DNA from: a virus
Reading direction: 5' to 3' (one strand)
Virus record (IMG/VR): IMGVR_UViG_3300009506_000009
Coordinates: 1 to 64,000 of that record
DNA: 64,000 bases
A program made the position numbers and the translations under genes. The notes beneath the pieces were generated by a model. The model was given only the letters and a program-made list of their open reading frames with translations, was not told where the DNA came from and did not search any database. Below, piece after piece: positions 22,558 through 42,819 of the stretch (the stretch's first letter is position 1; each line of letters begins with the position of its first letter).

Positions 22558-22629
22558 GGTGCGGTCGGTTAATGGATAAACCAACGGACTCCAAACCCGT
22601 GACTGAAGGTTCGAATCCTTCTCGCACCG
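22558..22629 (+). tRNA. tRNA-Trp(CCA)
   Basis: Cloverleaf; loop CT-CCA-AA. Confidence 0.9.
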
Positions 22630-22777
22630 CAATGAGAGCGGCCTAGCTCTCAGAATACCTATAGGCCCCTTTTCTGGCGGGGTCAAGGCCAGTACCGTTT
22701 CTCCAGGTCTAAGGGAGACGCAGGTGTGCCTGCGTGAACAGCACTCGCCACTCCTTTCTAGGAGGAGTGGCAGTCAT

Positions 22778-22851
22778 GCCCCGGTAGCTCAGGTGGTTAG
22801 AGCGGCATCCTGATAAGGTGCAGGTGGGTGGTTCGAGTCCACTCCGGGGTA
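22778..22851 (+). tRNA. tRNA-Ile(GAT)
   Basis: Cloverleaf. Confidence 0.95.
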
Positions 22852-23240
22852 CTCTTGCTTCGAAGCAGTGAATGGGCAATGCCCTGTGGATACTGTACTC
22901 TGGTAGACAACCCGGAGCGTCTGGAATATGACGATAAGTACAGTCAGTTGGTCACCGAAGCGCAATGTGATAACGCCACCAAACCAGCTAACACGCTAGG
23001 GTAGGAAAATACTCGGTAGAGCGAGAGCGTGTAAACCTGACACCAACCGAGCCGCTCCGTCCAGGCGAAACCTGTCCCTGGTTATCAAAACTAAGTGAAA
23101 GCGGTTTAGCTGATCCACCATGCGTGGAAACAGTATCATCCTGGGCGTAGGATGCGGGTGTAACAGCACCGTCAAGAATAAGAGCATACGCCTATTTGTG
23201 TGAAAGCATACAGAGCGGAAGCACTATGTCGAGTAACACA
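22852..23240 (+). ncRNA. Unidentified ~390-nt structured RNA
   Basis: No credible ORF; many complementary segments, including long-range CGGAGCG/CGCTCCG. Confidence 0.6.
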
Positions 23241-23243
23241 TTT

Positions 23244-23317
23244 GCTCCGTTAGCTCAGTTGGTTAGAGCGTTGCGTTGACATCGCAGAGGTCAGAAGTTC
23301 AAGTCTTCTACGGGGCA
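23244..23317 (+). tRNA. tRNA-Val(GAC)
   Basis: Cloverleaf. Confidence 0.95.
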
Positions 23318-23386
23318 CTTCTGAAAGGCCCACGTAACTCTGTCACCTGATGCATAAGGTGTGGTTGAAGAACAGTAGCAGAACAT

Positions 23387-23460
23387 GGAGGCATAACTCA
23401 GTTGGTTAGAGTACCTTTCTTACAAAAAGGAAGCCGTTGGTTCGAGTCCAACTGTCTCCA
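23387..23460 (+). tRNA. tRNA-Val(TAC)
   Basis: Cloverleaf. Confidence 0.95.
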
Positions 23461-23492
23461 CAGCATAAAACTATTCTGATCGGAGCAAGAAC

Positions 23493-23621
23493 ATGTGGTT
23501 AGTTGCAGTTATTTCTATTACAGGCACCATCATTGTTATACGAAATGCTCTACACAACAAAATGAAACAGCCAAAGACAAAGTATCCAGCACTTGAGTAC
23601 TTTGCTAACCTTATTGATTAA
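23493..23621 (+). CDS. Small membrane peptide (42 aa)
   Basis: GGAG RBS; MWLVAVISITGTIIVI... Confidence 0.5.
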   Translation: MWLVAVISITGTIIVIRNALHNKMKQPKTKYPALEYFANLID

Positions 23622-23696
23622 GGCGACATCGTCTAACTGGACCAGGACACTAGACCTTCAATCTAGGAAATAGGGGTTCGACTCCCCTTGTCGTCA
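23622..23696 (+). tRNA. tRNA-Glu(TTC), C33
   Basis: Stem CTAGA/TCTAG; loop CC-TTC-AA. Confidence 0.85.
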
Positions 23697-23814
23697 CCTA
23701 ATACGCACTGGTATCTGGTACCTTCTCGGAGCTAATTACTCCAATGTTAGGACGGCCCTTTTTAGGGCGGCAGTTCCCCATAAGCGTGCGGCGGAGAAGA
23801 CAAACAGATATAAT

Positions 23815-23887
23815 GCCCCCATCTGCTAATTGGTCAGGCACCCCGCCTCTCAAGTGGGAAATCGGAGTTCGAGCCTCCGTGAGGGCA
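23815..23887 (+). tRNA. tRNA-Glu(CTC)
   Basis: Cloverleaf with one acceptor mismatch. Confidence 0.85.
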
Positions 23888-24003
23888 CTATGTTAGAGCA
23901 CGAAGCTAAAGGTCTTATCATAGACTTACTACATTACTACAGCATCAAAGGTATTATAACCGGGGTTATACTAATCGTAACTATGTCTCAATTGATATAG
24001 CCT

Positions 24004-40628: not shown

Positions 40629-40629
40629 A

Positions 40630-40703
40630 GCCGTCATAGTTTAATGGATAAAACAGACGCCTTTTAAGCGATCAGACTGAGGGTTCGAGTCCTTCTGGCG
40701 GCA
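40630..40703 (+). tRNA. tRNA-Lys(TTT), Arg-like D-loop
   Basis: Loop CT-TTT-AA; D-loop AATGGATA. Confidence 0.75.
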
Positions 40704-40724
40704 TAAAAACTATGGAAATCATAA

Positions 40725-41006
40725 ATGCACATTGACAAGTTCAACAGCTACGTGCGTATTCTAAGCACACGTTTTTGGGTAAGACATTGGTACAACTTCT
40801 ATGATGTGCCCCTGTTTACTGACCACAAGCGCACTATGGCGATCAGCCTAATTGACCTTGTTGATCGTAAGAATATGTTTGAAGAAGTCTGTCGGGACTT
40901 AAAGAAAGCCGGGTTTGATGTCCGAGTAAAGCTGGATGCAACTAGCCCCTACCCATATGCGGAGTTGGTTGCGTTTGTAGAAAGAACAGATTGGCCTATA
41001 GTGTAA
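40725..41006 (+). CDS. Hypothetical protein
   Basis: ORF overlapping tRNA-Gln. Confidence 0.6.
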   Translation: MHIDKFNSYVRILSTRFWVRHWYNFYDVPLFTDHKRTMAISLIDLVDRKNMFEEVCRDLKKAGFDVRVKLDATSPYPYAELVAFVERTDWPIV

Positions 41007-41063
41007 TGGTTATCACGTCTGCCTTTGAAGCAGAAGACCCAGGTTCGAACCCTGGTGGGCCAG
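40992..41063 (+). tRNA. tRNA-Gln(TTG)
   Basis: T1-A72, G73. Confidence 0.92.
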
Positions 41064-41093
41064 CTAACCTATCAATGAGTGAAGGAGATTAAA

Positions 41094-41621
41094 ATGATTA
41101 ACCCAAATCAAGGAAGCGGTGTGAAAATCCAGATTAACAGTTTAGCGGCATTAGAACGTCTGCTCGGTGATGATGCGAAAATGGAGATCGAAGTTCGGCA
41201 GTCTGTTGTAGAAGCTTTTGCTCGTGGTTTTGTAAAGAACATTGCGAATGCTGATGCTGTTGCTAAGGTTATCGAAGACCTTAAAGACTTTGTGAAACGG
41301 GAAGTTGTGGAAGAGACATCTAACCAGATGGCAATGGCTGGTATTGTCAAGGATGGGTCCTGGTATCAGACGAAGTTGAAACTTACCGATACTGCTGAAG
41401 AGAAGATCGCATCGGAAGTACGTATACAAGTGTATGATAATATACGTAAAGCAATCAGCGAAATGAATATTGATGAGATTGTAACCCGTTATGTTACGGA
41501 TGCTATCCGTCGTGAAGTCAACCATCAGGTCAAGGCTATCACCCAATCCACTGTTATGGCATCCCTACAGTTGGCAATGGATCAAGCCTTAGATACTGAC
41601 CCGGTAGATAATGAAGATTAA
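41094..41621 (+). CDS. Hypothetical helical protein
   Basis: AAGGAG RBS. Confidence 0.7.
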   Translation: MINPNQGSGVKIQINSLAALERLLGDDAKMEIEVRQSVVEAFARGFVKNIANADAVAKVIEDLKDFVKREVVEETSNQMAMAGIVKDGSWYQTKLKLTDTAEEKIASEVRIQVYDNIRKAISEMNIDEIVTRYVTDAIRREVNHQVKAITQSTVMASLQLAMDQALDTDPVDNED

Positions 41622-41745
41622 ACTTACGCTTTACAATGATGATGGTCAGCCTGTTGCATCTGCTACTCTGAAGTCCGGGGTAGTGGATGCCAACGGTAAT
41701 ATCTTGACAGAAGAAGCCCTACGAAGTATGGTAGGTAGTATAAAT

Positions 41746-41827
41746 ACCAGCGTGGCGGAACTGGTTTACGCAGAGGACTTAAAACCCTCCGACTCCGGTC
41801 ATGTGGGTTCGACTCCCACCGCTGGTA
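41746..41827 (+). tRNA. tRNA-Leu(TAA)
   Basis: Cloverleaf; nested in ORF 41611..41838. Confidence 0.92.
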
Positions 41828-41839
41828 CAAAGGATTAGC

Positions 41840-42271
41840 ATGGACATTCTCGAAGTGCAGTATGGTATCATCGTCCATCAGGTAAACTTACAAGGTAAGA
41901 TGGGTGCTGGTCTTGCAAAGCAAGTCAAAGAAACGTACCCACTCAATTATGAGAAATACCTGGAAGATTATCATGTACGTGTCCTTGGGGATGTCTTGGT
42001 TGTGACTGTAAAAAAGAACCTTCACATTGCTAACCTGTATGGACAAGAGAGCGTTGGTGCAGGTCTCCAAACAGATTATACCGCTATAGCAACAGGTCTC
42101 GACTTGATTGCTCATTGGTCTGAGCATGCACAGCTTCCTGTATATATTCCAGAGAAGATGGGATGCGGCCTCGGTGGTGGAAACTGGAATGCAATCAAAG
42201 CGATTATTAAAGATACAATTCCGTATGCCTGGATCGTTTCTTTAGAAAGGTCTACACCGTATAGATTATGA
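41840..42271 (+). CDS. Macro-domain (Poa1/DarG-like) ADP-ribose hydrolase
   Basis: HQVN..GKMGAGLA and P.KMGCGLGGGNW motifs. Confidence 0.85.
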   Translation: MDILEVQYGIIVHQVNLQGKMGAGLAKQVKETYPLNYEKYLEDYHVRVLGDVLVVTVKKNLHIANLYGQESVGAGLQTDYTAIATGLDLIAHWSEHAQLPVYIPEKMGCGLGGGNWNAIKAIIKDTIPYAWIVSLERSTPYRL

Positions 42272-42738
42272 CTCCTATACCACAACCTGCTAACTTGTCG
42301 TACATTGTAGGTTCTCACTTTAACCATATTGAAGTATGTACTGCATTCCCACGCACACGAGAAGATATCTCCAGGATGTCTTGTGGTCACATTTCGGTAG
42401 AGAGTGTAACGTATGATGATAGGCCAGATGGCACAGTTATGTGGGTAAAACCTGGAACAGCAGGAGATATTATTAGAAGCGGTACTGTTACATACTTTGC
42501 AATCTGTGACAGTCACAGTACACCTATCCTGGTAAATACATTCACACAGAAGTTTCAATTGCAGGAAGGTTGCATCTTTACATTGGCTCCGTTTGATGTT
42601 ACTTTGGCTCCAACAGATGTAGTGGTAGGCACGTATCCATACAACGATTCGGGCCTAAACGAAATAGAGTGCATCTACTGTGGACAACCAAGGCGTCCAA
42701 ATATACCGTGCCCACATTGTGGTGGGCGCATAGACTAG
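42268..42738 (+). CDS. Paralogue of fibre subunit 10922..11296 with a C-terminal zinc ribbon
   Basis: 'EGCIFTLAPFDVTL' versus 'NGNTFTLTAFDVEF'; CIYC...CPHC. Confidence 0.55.
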   Translation: MTPIPQPANLSYIVGSHFNHIEVCTAFPRTREDISRMSCGHISVESVTYDDRPDGTVMWVKPGTAGDIIRSGTVTYFAICDSHSTPILVNTFTQKFQLQEGCIFTLAPFDVTLAPTDVVVGTYPYNDSGLNEIECIYCGQPRRPNIPCPHCGGRID

Positions 42739-42819
42739 CCAGCATGGTGGAATTGGCAGACACAGTGTCCTCAAAAGGCACCGGGTAAAACCGTGAGAGT
42801 TCGACTCTCTCTGCTGGCA
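42738..42819 (+). tRNA. tRNA-Leu(CAA)
   Basis: Cloverleaf. Confidence 0.92.

Follow-up and report, generated by a model that had tools for sequence, protein, structure and literature searches.

Arrays of tRNA genes that include a tmRNA are known from large phages, for example huge phages and the cluster C mycobacteriophages, among them Bxz1. The tRNA clusters of phages T4 and T5 also contain stable non-tRNA RNAs, and the tRNA punctuation model describes the processing of mitochondrial transcripts. In Lak megaphages, some tRNAs are interrupted by 'enigmatic' introns (PMC6784885).

The locus described here belongs to a marine-sediment phage represented by an IMG/VR virus record of 98.9 kb, which is about 68% complete. 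The window that was analysed comprises the first 64,000 nt of this record. The sequence is filed as a virus and carries the phage markers gpA terminase, GH25 lysin and HNH endonuclease. The tRNAs and accessory RNAs detected by ARAGORN and Rfam at positions 22558-42820, hereafter called the island, are all on the plus strand (Table 1). The island resembles the arrays of large phages such as mycobacteriophages in its dozens of co-oriented tRNAs with small ORFs between them, the tmRNA inside and the RNA repair genes nearby; unlike those arrays, it reads all 61 sense codons. Searchable published descriptions of phage tRNA arrays contained no RNase P RNA, rRNA-domain mimic or non-cloverleaf Arg tRNA, and no published description of the rewired Arg tRNAs, the mini RNase P or the GTPase-associated centre (GAC) mimic presented below was found in the literature. 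As in the T4 and T5 clusters and in mitochondrial punctuation, non-tRNA RNAs of the island would be co-transcribed with tRNAs and freed by tRNA-processing enzymes. In contrast to T4 and T5, two of the passengers are identifiable (RNase P RNA and an rRNA domain), and abutment to tRNAs in their families is frequent but not universal. The island is probably the tRNA region of a large lytic-type phage, in which independently acquired modules share transcription and processing.

Gene content and decoding capacity

The island contains 36 canonical tRNA genes identified by ARAGORN. Together with three unusual but anticodon-bearing tRNAs, these genes suffice for all 20 amino acids and every sense codon. 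Rfam searches at a permissive threshold added the genes at 34073-34155, 26506-26580, 24004-24080 and 26978-27096, resulting in 39-40 anticodon-bearing genes, in agreement with the original prediction of 40 tRNAs for all 20 amino acids. The putative Ser(CGA) tRNA at 34073-34155 has a C-A mismatch in the anticodon stem. The expectation that essentially none of the genes encodes CCA also holds: CCA is encoded in 0 of the 36 tRNA genes and C74 in 35. U(-1) precedes 28 of the 36 genes and A(-2) likewise 28, and other phages with a mini RNase P show the same bias. Both U-1 and C74 contact bacterial RNase P RNA, at J5/15 and at the GGU of L15, respectively.

Enzymes for the 3' ends and for repair of tRNAs are encoded outside the island. 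Just past the window, at genome positions 64169-65557 (L077:169-1557), a 462-aa ORF matches PF01743 (PolyA_pol head, 72 bits) and PF01966 (HD, 22 bits); from these domains, it would fit a class II CCA-adding enzyme of the bacterial repair type. Of the two repair proteins predicted downstream of the island, RtcB is a strong match, whereas the RlaP-like protein barely exceeds its cut-off. The predicted tmRNA was called by ARAGORN and scores just above the RF00023 gathering threshold. It encodes a 30-aa tag that starts with Ala and ends with AVAA, followed by two stop codons, and its orthologue in L002, the sole syntenic relative, scores 45.6 bits. SmpB (PF01668) was not found across the 98.9-kb, about 68% complete record, and host SmpB is presumed to be the partner of the tmRNA.

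Recognisable RNA genes form about 19% of the island, and ORFs, mostly small and led by Shine-Dalgarno (SD) sequences, about 60%. The half at 33.4-42.8 kb is densely filled with SD-led ORFs. Some of the island ORFs match Pfam or PHROG, whereas the 116-aa and 349-aa ORFs at 35437-36820 matched no known family. The protein genes at 24117-26215 have about 67% nucleotide identity to L002. On the plus strand, 11 near-consensus sigma-70 promoters (10 or more of 12 positions matching) were predicted in the spacers, and none on the minus strand; five clean terminators are also located within spacers. The promoter at 31573-31601 starts a unit with the tmRNA, the GAC mimic and the RNase P RNA.

Table 1. 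Positions of RNA genes, protein genes and transcription signals in and near the island
Feature	Position	Strand	Basis
Sigma-70 promoter (TTGACA, 17 nt, TAAAAT, with TG), predicted, ahead of first tRNA	22341-22369	+	near-consensus
tRNAs Trp CCA, Ile GAU, Val GAC, Val UAC, Glu UUC, Glu CUC (six canonical)	22558-23888	+	ARAGORN, Rfam
Rewired-core tRNA-Arg(UCU)	24004-24080	+	Rfam 28.8 bits, fold
Terminator-like hairpin with T-run	24090-24109	+	
Two protein genes breaking the array: 310-aa protein of unknown function, GH25 lysin	24117-26215	-	ORFs, domain matches
tRNA-Thr(GGU)	26428-26501	+	ARAGORN
Rewired-core tRNA-Arg(UCG), CGA/CGG reader	26506-26580	+	Rfam 35.7 bits, fold
tRNA-Arg(CCU), promoter 26593-26621 upstream	26638-26712	+	ARAGORN
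119-nt tRNA body, anticodon stem extended into ~50-nt hairpin (intron-like insert)	26978-27096	+	Rfam 48 bits
tRNAs Met, Met, Thr(UGU), Thr(CGU) and degenerate element	27136-28021	+	ARAGORN, Rfam
Conserved 63-nt spacer core	27573-27635	+	84% identical to L002; coding DNA there ~67%
Degenerate tRNA-like element, 4-nt anticodon loop, imperfect acceptor stem	27870-27937	+	Rfam, fold
tRNAs Ala UGC, Lys CUU, Asp GUC	28520-29097	+	ARAGORN
Terminator	29224-29241	+	
phrog_2475, phrog_2574, HNH endonuclease genes	29260-31336	+	PHROG/Pfam matches
Conserved terminator (31455-31483) and consensus promoter (31573-31601)	31455-31601	+	
tRNA-Tyr(GUA), 3 nt upstream of tmRNA	31700-31781	+	ARAGORN
tmRNA	31785-32072	+	ARAGORN; RF00023 47.7 bits vs gathering score 47
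tRNAs Leu UAG, Pro UGG, Leu AAG, Pro UGG, Phe GAA	32324-33301	+	ARAGORN
66-nt Leu-type tRNA body without anticodon arm	32697-32762	+	Rfam, fold
Free-standing 98-nt copy of 23S L11-binding (GTPase-associated) domain	33302-33399	+	alignment to rrlH
Small SD-led ORFs: DUF6166 (100 aa), 90-aa ORF	33418-33989	+	
tRNA-Ser(UGA), then after 2 nt type II tRNA read as Ser(CGA)	33983-34155	+	ARAGORN, Rfam, fold
SD-led ORFs of 83, 72, 59 aa, with tRNA-Asn(GUU)	34308-35139	+	
tRNA-Asn(GUU)	34771-34843	+	ARAGORN
RNase P RNA, 207 nt, without specificity domain (S-domain)	35140-35346	+	RF00010
tRNA-Asn(GUU), 3 nt downstream of RNase P RNA	35350-35423	+	ARAGORN
Basic 116-aa ORF (pI 9.9) and 349-aa ORF	35437-36820	+	
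12 canonical tRNAs: Gln, His, Gly x2, Arg GCG, Cys, Ser GCU, Met, Lys UUU, Gln, Leu UAA, Leu CAA	36826-42820	+	ARAGORN
SD-led ORFs (DUF7352, second HNH, phrog_335 phosphatase, others), 4 promoters, 1 terminator among tRNAs	36826-42820	+	
RtcB RNA ligase	49517-50707	+	PF01139, E 1.4e-52
RlaP-like nucleotidyltransferase, marginal match	50775-51575	+	PF10127, 23.7 bits vs cut-off 23, E 4.6e-5

Mini RNase P RNA and the GTPase-associated centre mimic

The original prediction named a mini RNase P RNA and a 23S rRNA mimic, and both were identified. The 207-nt RNA matches RF00010 over the full span of the model minus the S-domain with 42.9 bits (E 1e-10 to 1e-13), a score that does not reach the gathering score of 100 bits. 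Like bacterial type A RNase P RNA (E. coli M1 RNA), it retains P1-P6, P15-P17, CR-I, CR-IV, CR-V, the bulged U in P4 and the GGU in J16/15, which pairs with the tRNA 3' end. In contrast to type A RNA, it lacks P18, is encoded by a virus within a tRNA array without a cognate protein gene, and has the S-domain (P7-P14 with CR-II/III, about 140 model positions) swapped for a stub of about 37 nt. No separate S-domain was matched by Rfam in the island or the phage genome. With about 200 nt, the RNA has the length of the archaeal type T RNase P RNA of Thermoproteaceae; this identity was rejected, as bacterial type A was the best match within the RNase P clan in five of five loci examined. Engineered RNase P RNAs that contain only the C-domain are weak catalysts in vitro, because of which the competence of the 207-nt RNA in vivo is uncertain. 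The retained catalytic core is shared with such engineered ribozymes (refs 83-84 of PMC11143913).

Model R1 matches each of the 14 distinct family members of the mini RNase P, with scores of 66-142 bits, and in 13 of 14 loci the RNA is on the same strand as the tRNAs. CR-I, CR-IV and CR-V (GAGGAA..UC.GG, GGAGCAA and ACAGAAUCC) vary little or not at all, and the GGU (GGT) of L15/J16-15 is invariant across the alignment. P4 is paired in 100% of the 14 sequences, with compensatory changes in four of eight pairs and an invariant bulged U. When P4 and P6 were tested together, having been kept out of model R1 beforehand, 100% of cells were paired and seven of 12 pairs had double changes; none of 500 shuffles reached this, and slid controls gave at most 44%. 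The whole structure is 96% paired across the family. By this covariation, the mini RNase P qualifies as a phage RNA family. RnpA was found neither in the 98.9-kb, about 68% complete record nor in two complete phages with a mini RNase P, and no conserved ORF lies beside the RNA across the family. In the island, the stop codon of the 59-aa SD-led ORF abuts P1. Both the mini RNase P and the tmRNA are assumed to depend on host proteins.

The GAC mimic consists of a closing stem, a copy of H43, a 31-nt insert and the H44 loop, and begins one base past C74 of tRNA-Phe. It is identical to E. coli rrlH 1059-1088 at 27 of 30 positions, with an alignment score of 45 compared to 20 ± 2.4 for shuffles, and carries the GCGTAATAGCACA loop. 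The mimic thus shares H43, the H44 loop GCGUAAUAGC and an enclosing helix with the 58-nt uL11/thiostrepton-binding fragment of 23S rRNA (E. coli 1051-1108; top of H42, H43 and H44). Unlike that fragment, it is positioned outside any rRNA gene, in phage tRNA operons, its H44 is split by the insert (31-340 nt in relatives), and its closing helix varies freely. Neither the window nor 40 of the 41 viral loci showed any further alignment to 23S around the mimic, which is free-standing in these 40. The H44 loop is present in 28 of 30 distinct copies, and the Rfam LSU model gives local matches to the copies of two relatives at positions of about 1082-1155. The closing helix covaries, with duplex energies of -7.2 kcal/mol for matched and -1.1 kcal/mol for swapped flanks. 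As with the RNase P RNA, covariation points to a phage RNA family.

It is conceivable, but unlikely, that both RNAs are sponges for host RnpA and uL11, or for factors targeting them. Host tRNA maturation and translation control would then be disabled, with the phage tRNAs processed otherwise. The phage encodes neither partner protein, the S-domain that gives substrate recognition is gone, and the GAC mimic, closed by a stem of its own, is built to stand free. However, the catalytic elements (bulged U of P4, CR-I/IV/V, P6 pseudoknot and GGU of J16/15) are conserved far more strongly than protein binding should require. Furthermore, A(-2) U(-1) leaders, which suit RNase P, and C74 are retained in the tRNA genes of the phage, and titration of RnpA would hurt the maturation of the 40 tRNAs of the phage itself.

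Unusual tRNAs, spacers and the probable independence of the modules

The two odd Arg genes had been regarded as mimics with broken anticodon arms. This was rejected: their anticodon arms are intact, the D-arm is rewired, and they fill decoding gaps as the sole readers of AGA, in the case of tRNA-Arg(UCU), and of CGA/CGG in the island set. The core of tRNA-Arg(UCU) is rearranged such that a D-loop-like segment and one strand of the D-stem follow the anticodon arm on its 3' side. The same design occurs in loci L041 and L065 with a covarying stem, and the counterpart of tRNA-Arg(UCG) in L002 is a canonical cloverleaf. By sequence, the two genes have the features of working-type tRNAs. Of the approximately five broken anticodon arms that had been counted, three remain: deleted at 32697-32762, shrunken at 27870-27937 and expanded at 26978-27096. 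The expanded tRNA (fold z -3.6) has an orthologue at L002 18219-18337 (53.9 bits), in which the 119-nt length is kept and the insert sequence has diverged. Contigs in X2/X3 contain matching flanks joined via a normal CUA anticodon arm. As in the Lak introns (PMC6784885), a short conserved insert of unexplained splicing interrupts the anticodon region of a phage tRNA; unlike in Lak, the insert at 26978-27096 is a long extension of the anticodon stem, and neither splice sites nor a splicing mechanism could be recognised in it.

The island could also be an accretion zone, a recombination hot spot seeded by homing HNH endonucleases that accumulates captured fragments of host RNAs and tRNA duplicates, which then decay, with the odd RNAs as functionless hitch-hikers. 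Two HNH genes lie inside the island, the Leu-Pro / Leu-like / Leu-Pro duplication pattern is missing in L002, the array order differs from that of L002, and the element at 27870-27937 looks degenerate (fold z +0.1). This explanation is quite improbable for the island as a whole, since the mini RNase P, the GAC mimic and the rewired Arg tRNAs recur in unrelated phages with compensatory changes, and without the rewired Arg tRNAs, AGA and CGA/CGG would have no reader in the set. It is tenable only for 27870 and perhaps 32697, because three element types show purifying selection and covariation.

The original prediction treats the island as a single integrated system: long transcripts are punctuated by tRNAs, which sets free a library of decoy or regulatory RNAs that the spacers encode. 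Punctuation is plausible for three non-tRNA RNAs, which are separated from tRNAs by 3 nt (tRNA-Tyr to tmRNA), 0 nt (tRNA-Phe to GAC mimic) and 3 nt (RNase P RNA to tRNA-Asn), but across the families a tRNA directly adjoins only four of the 14 copies of the mini RNase P, and the GAC mimic in about half of the cases. Further points in favour of a library are spacers that fold better than dinucleotide shuffles (several, z -2.7 to -4.3), the conserved 63-nt core and the three tRNA shapes that lack a usable anticodon arm. The ORF-free spacers of at least 60 nt make up about 21% of the island (n = 23, 4.2 kb in total); apart from these and the RNA genes, the island consists of ORFs. Taking all spacers, most are coding or regulatory DNA, and several hold the promoters and terminators described above. 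Only three of the 23 are conserved with L002, and one of these three is a promoter with a terminator. No match to GOLLD (RF02032) or ROOL was found in the island at E values up to 5, and the same method detected GOLLD in L007. Two of the supposed mimics are decoding Arg tRNAs, and the mini RNase P and the GAC mimic are inherited separately: they occurred together in none of the 5 + 5 other phage records tested, five of which are complete. A single integrated system with an RNA library is very unlikely. The RNAs of the island are independent modules among ordinary genes and promoters, and do not form a co-ordinated library of decoy RNAs. Most of the elements originally described are present, with the number of broken arms and the extent of structured spacers overstated; of the interpretation, the 'replace, process, repair' part fits the gene content, with a full decoding set, a PolyA_pol+HD enzyme, an RNase P core, tmRNA, RtcB and the RlaP-like protein, whereas neither the decoy library nor the integration does.

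Proposed role of the island during infection

The preferred reading, a tRNA region of independently acquired modules, suggests the following activities, which we infer together with their benefit to the phage from gene content, RNA structures, family membership and promoter layout. Transcription would start at ten or more host-type (sigma-70) promoters and yield polycistronic RNAs that combine tRNAs with small ORFs. The 207-nt RNase P RNA, with its whole catalytic domain kept, most likely cleaves 5' leaders with host RnpA, and may add processing capacity for the load of phage pre-tRNAs. The PolyA_pol+HD enzyme may finish or repair the 3' ends of tRNAs that encode C74 but not CCA, and RtcB and the RlaP-like protein could reseal cut tRNAs. 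The tmRNA would rescue stalled ribosomes with host SmpB. The GAC mimic most likely binds, off the ribosome, something that recognises this ribosomal site, for example uL11. Phage tRNAs have been proposed to counter tRNA-targeting defences (PMC10264068, PMC11555353, PMC11464382). The 39-40 tRNAs, reading every sense codon, may enable phage translation to continue despite depletion of host tRNAs or their cutting by defence nucleases.

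Decoding set and rewired arginine tRNAs

ARAGORN identified 36 tRNAs and a tmRNA between positions 22558 and 42820 of the window, all on the plus strand and covering 20 of 20 amino acids, and the Rfam matches were concordant. The original prediction of a tRNA island with tmRNA, RNase P RNA, and an rRNA mimic was largely right. Six more tRNA-like elements were retrieved by a permissive Rfam search of the island, and no tRNAs were found in the rest of the 98,893-base record. All sense codons are readable once the genes for Ser(CGA), Arg(UCG), and Arg(UCU) are counted. None of the 36 tRNA genes encodes CCA; C74 is present in 35 of them, never followed by CA. 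C74 is also kept at every other phage locus with a reduced RNase P RNA, irrespective of whether the full CCA is encoded there. The tRNA leaders carry A at position -2 in 28/36 genes and U at position -1 in 28/36.

Positions of individual features in the tRNA island and its spacers
Feature	Position	Observation	Basis
Rewired tRNA-Arg, anticodon UCU	24004-24080	Anticodon arm intact	Fold and hand parsing
Rewired tRNA-Arg, anticodon UCG	26506-26580	Anticodon arm intact	Fold and hand parsing
Insert-bearing tRNA body	26978-27096	119 nt; anticodon stem prolonged by a hairpin of about 50 nt	
Conserved spacer core	27573-27635	63 nt; includes a 9-bp hairpin	
Short tRNA shape	27870-27937	Anticodon loop of 4 nt; acceptor stem mismatched	Fold, z +0.1
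HNH endonuclease gene	30803-31336	Within tRNA array	
Largest spacer matching L002	31337-31699	Conserved terminator and promoter	
Leu-type tRNA body	32697-32762	Perfect acceptor and T stems; merely 15 nt in place of anticodon arm	
GAC mimic	33302-33399 (+)	98 nt	
tRNA-Ser, type II, anticodon CGA	34073-34155	One C-A mismatch in anticodon stem	Fold and hand parsing
Mini RNase P RNA	35140-35346	207 nt	
HNH endonuclease gene	38661-38978	Within tRNA array	
Spacer hairpin	41622-41745	Near-perfect 18-bp hairpin	Fold, z -3.2

In both rewired Arg genes, one strand of the D-stem and a D-loop-like UAA.GGA segment are positioned 3' of the anticodon arm. Codons CGA/CGG and AGA are read in the set only by these two genes. 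A direct search by geometry, used in place of a covariance model because MAFFT shifted one stem strand, covered about 0.6 Mb of phage loci and identified this arrangement in two unrelated phages, L041 and L065, as Arg(UCU) in both. The swapped stem covaries, with the pairings UCCC/GGG, UCGG/CCG, and CCUG/CAG. Because the design recurs with a covarying stem, the rewired genes are best described as a recurrent, non-cloverleaf kind of decoding tRNA, and not as decoys. Their counterparts in L002, the only syntenic relative retrieved, are canonical.

The island was also predicted to contain tRNA shapes with broken anticodon arms. Three elements indeed lack a usable arm, but the two odd Arg genes have intact arms and are of the decoding type. 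The Leu-type body is located within a Leu-Pro/Leu-Pro duplication that is missing from L002. The short shape with the four-nucleotide loop looks degenerate. The insert-bearing body has a counterpart at the syntenic site of L002 that is also 119 nt long, but its insert differs in sequence. The term "enigmatic introns" has been used in print for short inserts that interrupt tRNAs of phages (PMC6784885). Contigs from two other sediment samples, of unproven origin given the short flanks, join position 27001 to 27069 via a normal arm with the loop CUCUAAA and anticodon CUA. CUA is an amber-suppressor anticodon. In this phage, TAG is a regular stop codon that terminates 17 of 58 long open reading frames (ORFs), and stop-codon recoding was not found. 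A search for tRNA shapes without an anticodon mainly recovered normal tRNAs that had been mis-parsed, plus a single further clean case, in the locus L063. In L065, which has a rewired Arg(UCU) gene and a GAC mimic, an over-long 115-nt tRNA match at 701-815 is possibly a second insert-bearing tRNA.

Reduced RNase P RNA and free-standing GTPase-associated centre

The mini RNase P RNA, which lacks the S-domain, matches the Rfam model RF00010 end to end (42.9 bits, E-value of 1e-10 to 1e-13), with about 37 nt standing in for about 140 S-domain positions. Viral, metagenome, and MAG contigs were scanned with patterns describing a catalytic core joined by a short linker, which yielded 14 distinct members after the removal of false positives. 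The candidates L010, L011/L029, L020, and L023/L026 were rejected, as they had no alignment, no match to R1, and no nearby tRNAs. R1, a covariance model built from the window copy alone and restricted to nested helices, recovers 14/14 members, with scores of 66-142 bits, and rejects every false positive. The family was aligned with a covariance model, since MAFFT misaligned P1-P3. The P4 and P6 pseudoknots, which are outside the model, are paired in 100% of cells, with double changes in 7 of 12 pairs; none of 500 shuffles equals this pairing, and slid controls reach at most 44%. The whole structure is 96% paired, and 47 of its 58 pairs have double changes. Across the alignment there is no variation in the bulged U of P4 or the J16/15 GGU, and little or none in CR-I/IV/V.

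The mini RNase P RNA is co-stranded with tRNAs at 13 of 14 loci and abuts a tRNA at four of the 14; in the window, tRNA-Asn begins 3 nt downstream. No neighboring ORF is conserved beside it across the family, and RnpA is encoded neither in the 98,893-base record nor in two complete phages with mini RNase P. A basic 116-aa ORF adjacent to the RNase P RNA was rejected as a candidate protein subunit, having no Pfam or PHROG matches and only two homologues; its AlphaFold model has a pLDDT of 60 and pTM of 0.39. In the locus L007, a second, partial RNase P-like copy (3406-3532, minus strand, 38 bits, model positions 21-156) directly adjoins the full mini RNase P at 3202-3405, and the same tRNA array contains a GOLLD RNA (7430-7900, minus strand, 191.6 bits) enclosing a tRNA-Arg (7753-7824). 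The 4.2-kb contig L012 (CAYQKA010000073.1), on which mini RNase P and ten co-oriented tRNAs occur, was assigned to a Planctomycetia MAG but is probably a mis-binned phage fragment.

The GAC mimic is a free-standing copy of the GTPase-associated centre of 23S rRNA. Its segment 33316-33345 is identical in 27 of 30 positions to 23S positions 1059-1088 of E. coli rrlH, and its alignment score is 45 versus 20 ± 2.4 for shuffles, with a shuffle maximum of 30. The copy of H43 is followed by a 31-nt insert and the H44 loop, and the domain is closed by a stem of about 10 bp. The H43 motif matched 41 viral contigs, just one of which is a true 23S gene, and in 28 of 30 distinct free-standing copies the H44 loop is positioned 31-340 nt downstream of H43. 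Although the closing stems are unlike in sequence (33% identity), their pairing is preserved: the stem energy is -7.2 kcal/mol for matched flanks versus -1.1 for swapped flanks. Rfam has no family for these mimics; its LSU model matches two copies at corresponding positions. Roughly one copy in two is directly adjacent to a tRNA. The copy in the window begins one base past the C74 position of tRNA-Phe, and its 3' end is 8 nt short of the Shine-Dalgarno sequence of a DUF6166 ORF.

Two further loci with GAC mimics have additional RNA features. In L047 (3681-4232, minus strand), the mimic has a 315-nt insert and directly abuts a tRNA (4070-4141); the tRNA is preceded by 89 nt that match the tmRNA model over its full length (41.2 bits) and may be a strongly reduced tmRNA or a tRNA-like domain. 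The 204-kb phage L056 contains group I introns at 567-751 and 2334-2589 (36 and 72 bits), a few kilobases from its mimic.

Spacers, promoters, and genomic setting

Of the island, about 19% is RNA genes and about 21% (4.2 kb) is ORF-free spacers of at least 60 nt; the remainder is filled by ORFs. The 33.4-42.8 kb half is densely filled with Shine-Dalgarno-led ORFs, with family matches including DUF6166, DUF7352, HNH, and phosphatase. Eleven promoters with perfect TTGACA and a spacer of 16-17 nt, all on the plus strand, are positioned upstream of tRNA groups, and the island contains five clean terminators. The ORF-free spacers number 23, and just three of them are similar to L002; some outfold their shuffles (z -2.7 to -4.3), but comparative support was found for none of the outfolding ones. 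Dissimilarity to L002 is weak evidence against function because this relative is distant, with about 67% nucleotide identity in genes. One spacer core is 84% identical to L002 18992-19055, versus about 67% in coding DNA, and has no match in other loci. The spacer hairpin, positioned immediately 5' of tRNA-Leu and a promoter-like site at 41704, could be an RNase III-type processing site. Weak Rfam matches in the island to PreQ1 (21.9 bits versus 39), Leu leader, STnc320, and lncRNA fragments were attributed to chance, and those to Plastid-ycf2 are antisense tRNAs. The two HNH endonucleases may drive rearrangements of the array relative to L002; SegB-driven amplification, as outlined in PMC13096335, provides a comparison.

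The IMG/VR record is linear and about 68% complete according to CheckV, and the window is its first 64 kb. A gpA-type large terminase is encoded immediately upstream of the island, and the phage also encodes a GH25 lysin and HNH endonucleases; ribonucleotide reductase, RecA, SSB, thymidylate kinase, a family A DNA polymerase, and an ArdC-like protein follow further along the record. The ArdC-like anti-restriction protein has a zincin metallopeptidase domain (genome positions 74085-74963; 10085-10963 of L077, the same genome beyond the window). Across 58000-64000, the GC content climbs to 0.51-0.56 from about 0.45, which suggests that these last 6 kb are a module of different origin. Phage DNA of the window is present in marine-sediment metagenomes. 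Contigs matching the stretch were mostly tRNA cross-matches and yielded no usable conservation profile. INPHARED phages gave no megablast matches to 30-44 kb, indicating no near relative among deposited phages. The terminase as query retrieved two relatives, of which only L002 is syntenic, and a 349-aa ORF retrieved none. The L002 contig stops short of the RNase P position.

Distribution of the modules and a possible maturation line

One predicted transcription unit, delimited by the promoter at 31573 and the following one at 36722, contains the tmRNA together with the GAC mimic and mini RNase P. The gene content is consistent with the proposed functions of tRNA replacement, processing, and repair, but their description as one integrated system is not supported by the distribution of the modules. 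The H43 motif is absent from all five phage records with mini RNase P, two of them complete, and RNase P RNA (R1 or RF00010) is absent from all five phage records with GAC mimics, three of them complete. The two modules are not co-inherited. The PolyA_pol enzyme is absent from two complete phages with mini RNase P, and several members of the mini RNase P family encode full CCA. The island is best seen as a set of translation modules, each mobile on its own, that collect within tRNA arrays and share promoters and processing enzymes there. A library of decoy RNAs released by tRNA punctuation exceeds the evidence; since most spacers are ordinary and the modules are not co-inherited, this idea should be carried forward only with RNA data.

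Phage tRNA arrays are already known, and their role in countering tRNA-cleaving defenses is a current topic. It is conceivable, although we consider it unlikely, that the phage maintains a semi-private line for maturing its tRNAs, with the GAC mimic titrating a factor in the same program. The S-domain-less ribozyme, no longer reading the tRNA elbow, would be specialized for phage precursors; these would include the rewired-core Arg tRNAs, the tmRNA, and passenger RNAs of tRNA shape, with elbows or bodies unlike those of host tRNAs. The phage CCA enzyme would complete the C74-only 3' ends, and the resulting tRNA pool would be hard to touch for host defenses and host processing bottlenecks. The GAC mimic would titrate a factor that monitors the factor-binding site of the ribosome.

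We found no description in the literature of S-domain-less phage RNase P RNAs, GAC mimics, or rewired Arg tRNAs. The approximately 5 kb at 31.6-36.7 kb provide a compact test bed for all three. A single phage of the 100-kb class has a complete decoding set and its own predicted enzymes for 3'-end completion and ligation, to which it adds a predicted 5'-processing ribozyme, a ribosome-rescue RNA, and a ribosomal-RNA look-alike. The contribution of the window is that the three RNA classes occur together in one phage, largely in one predicted operon, even though such co-occurrence is not the rule.
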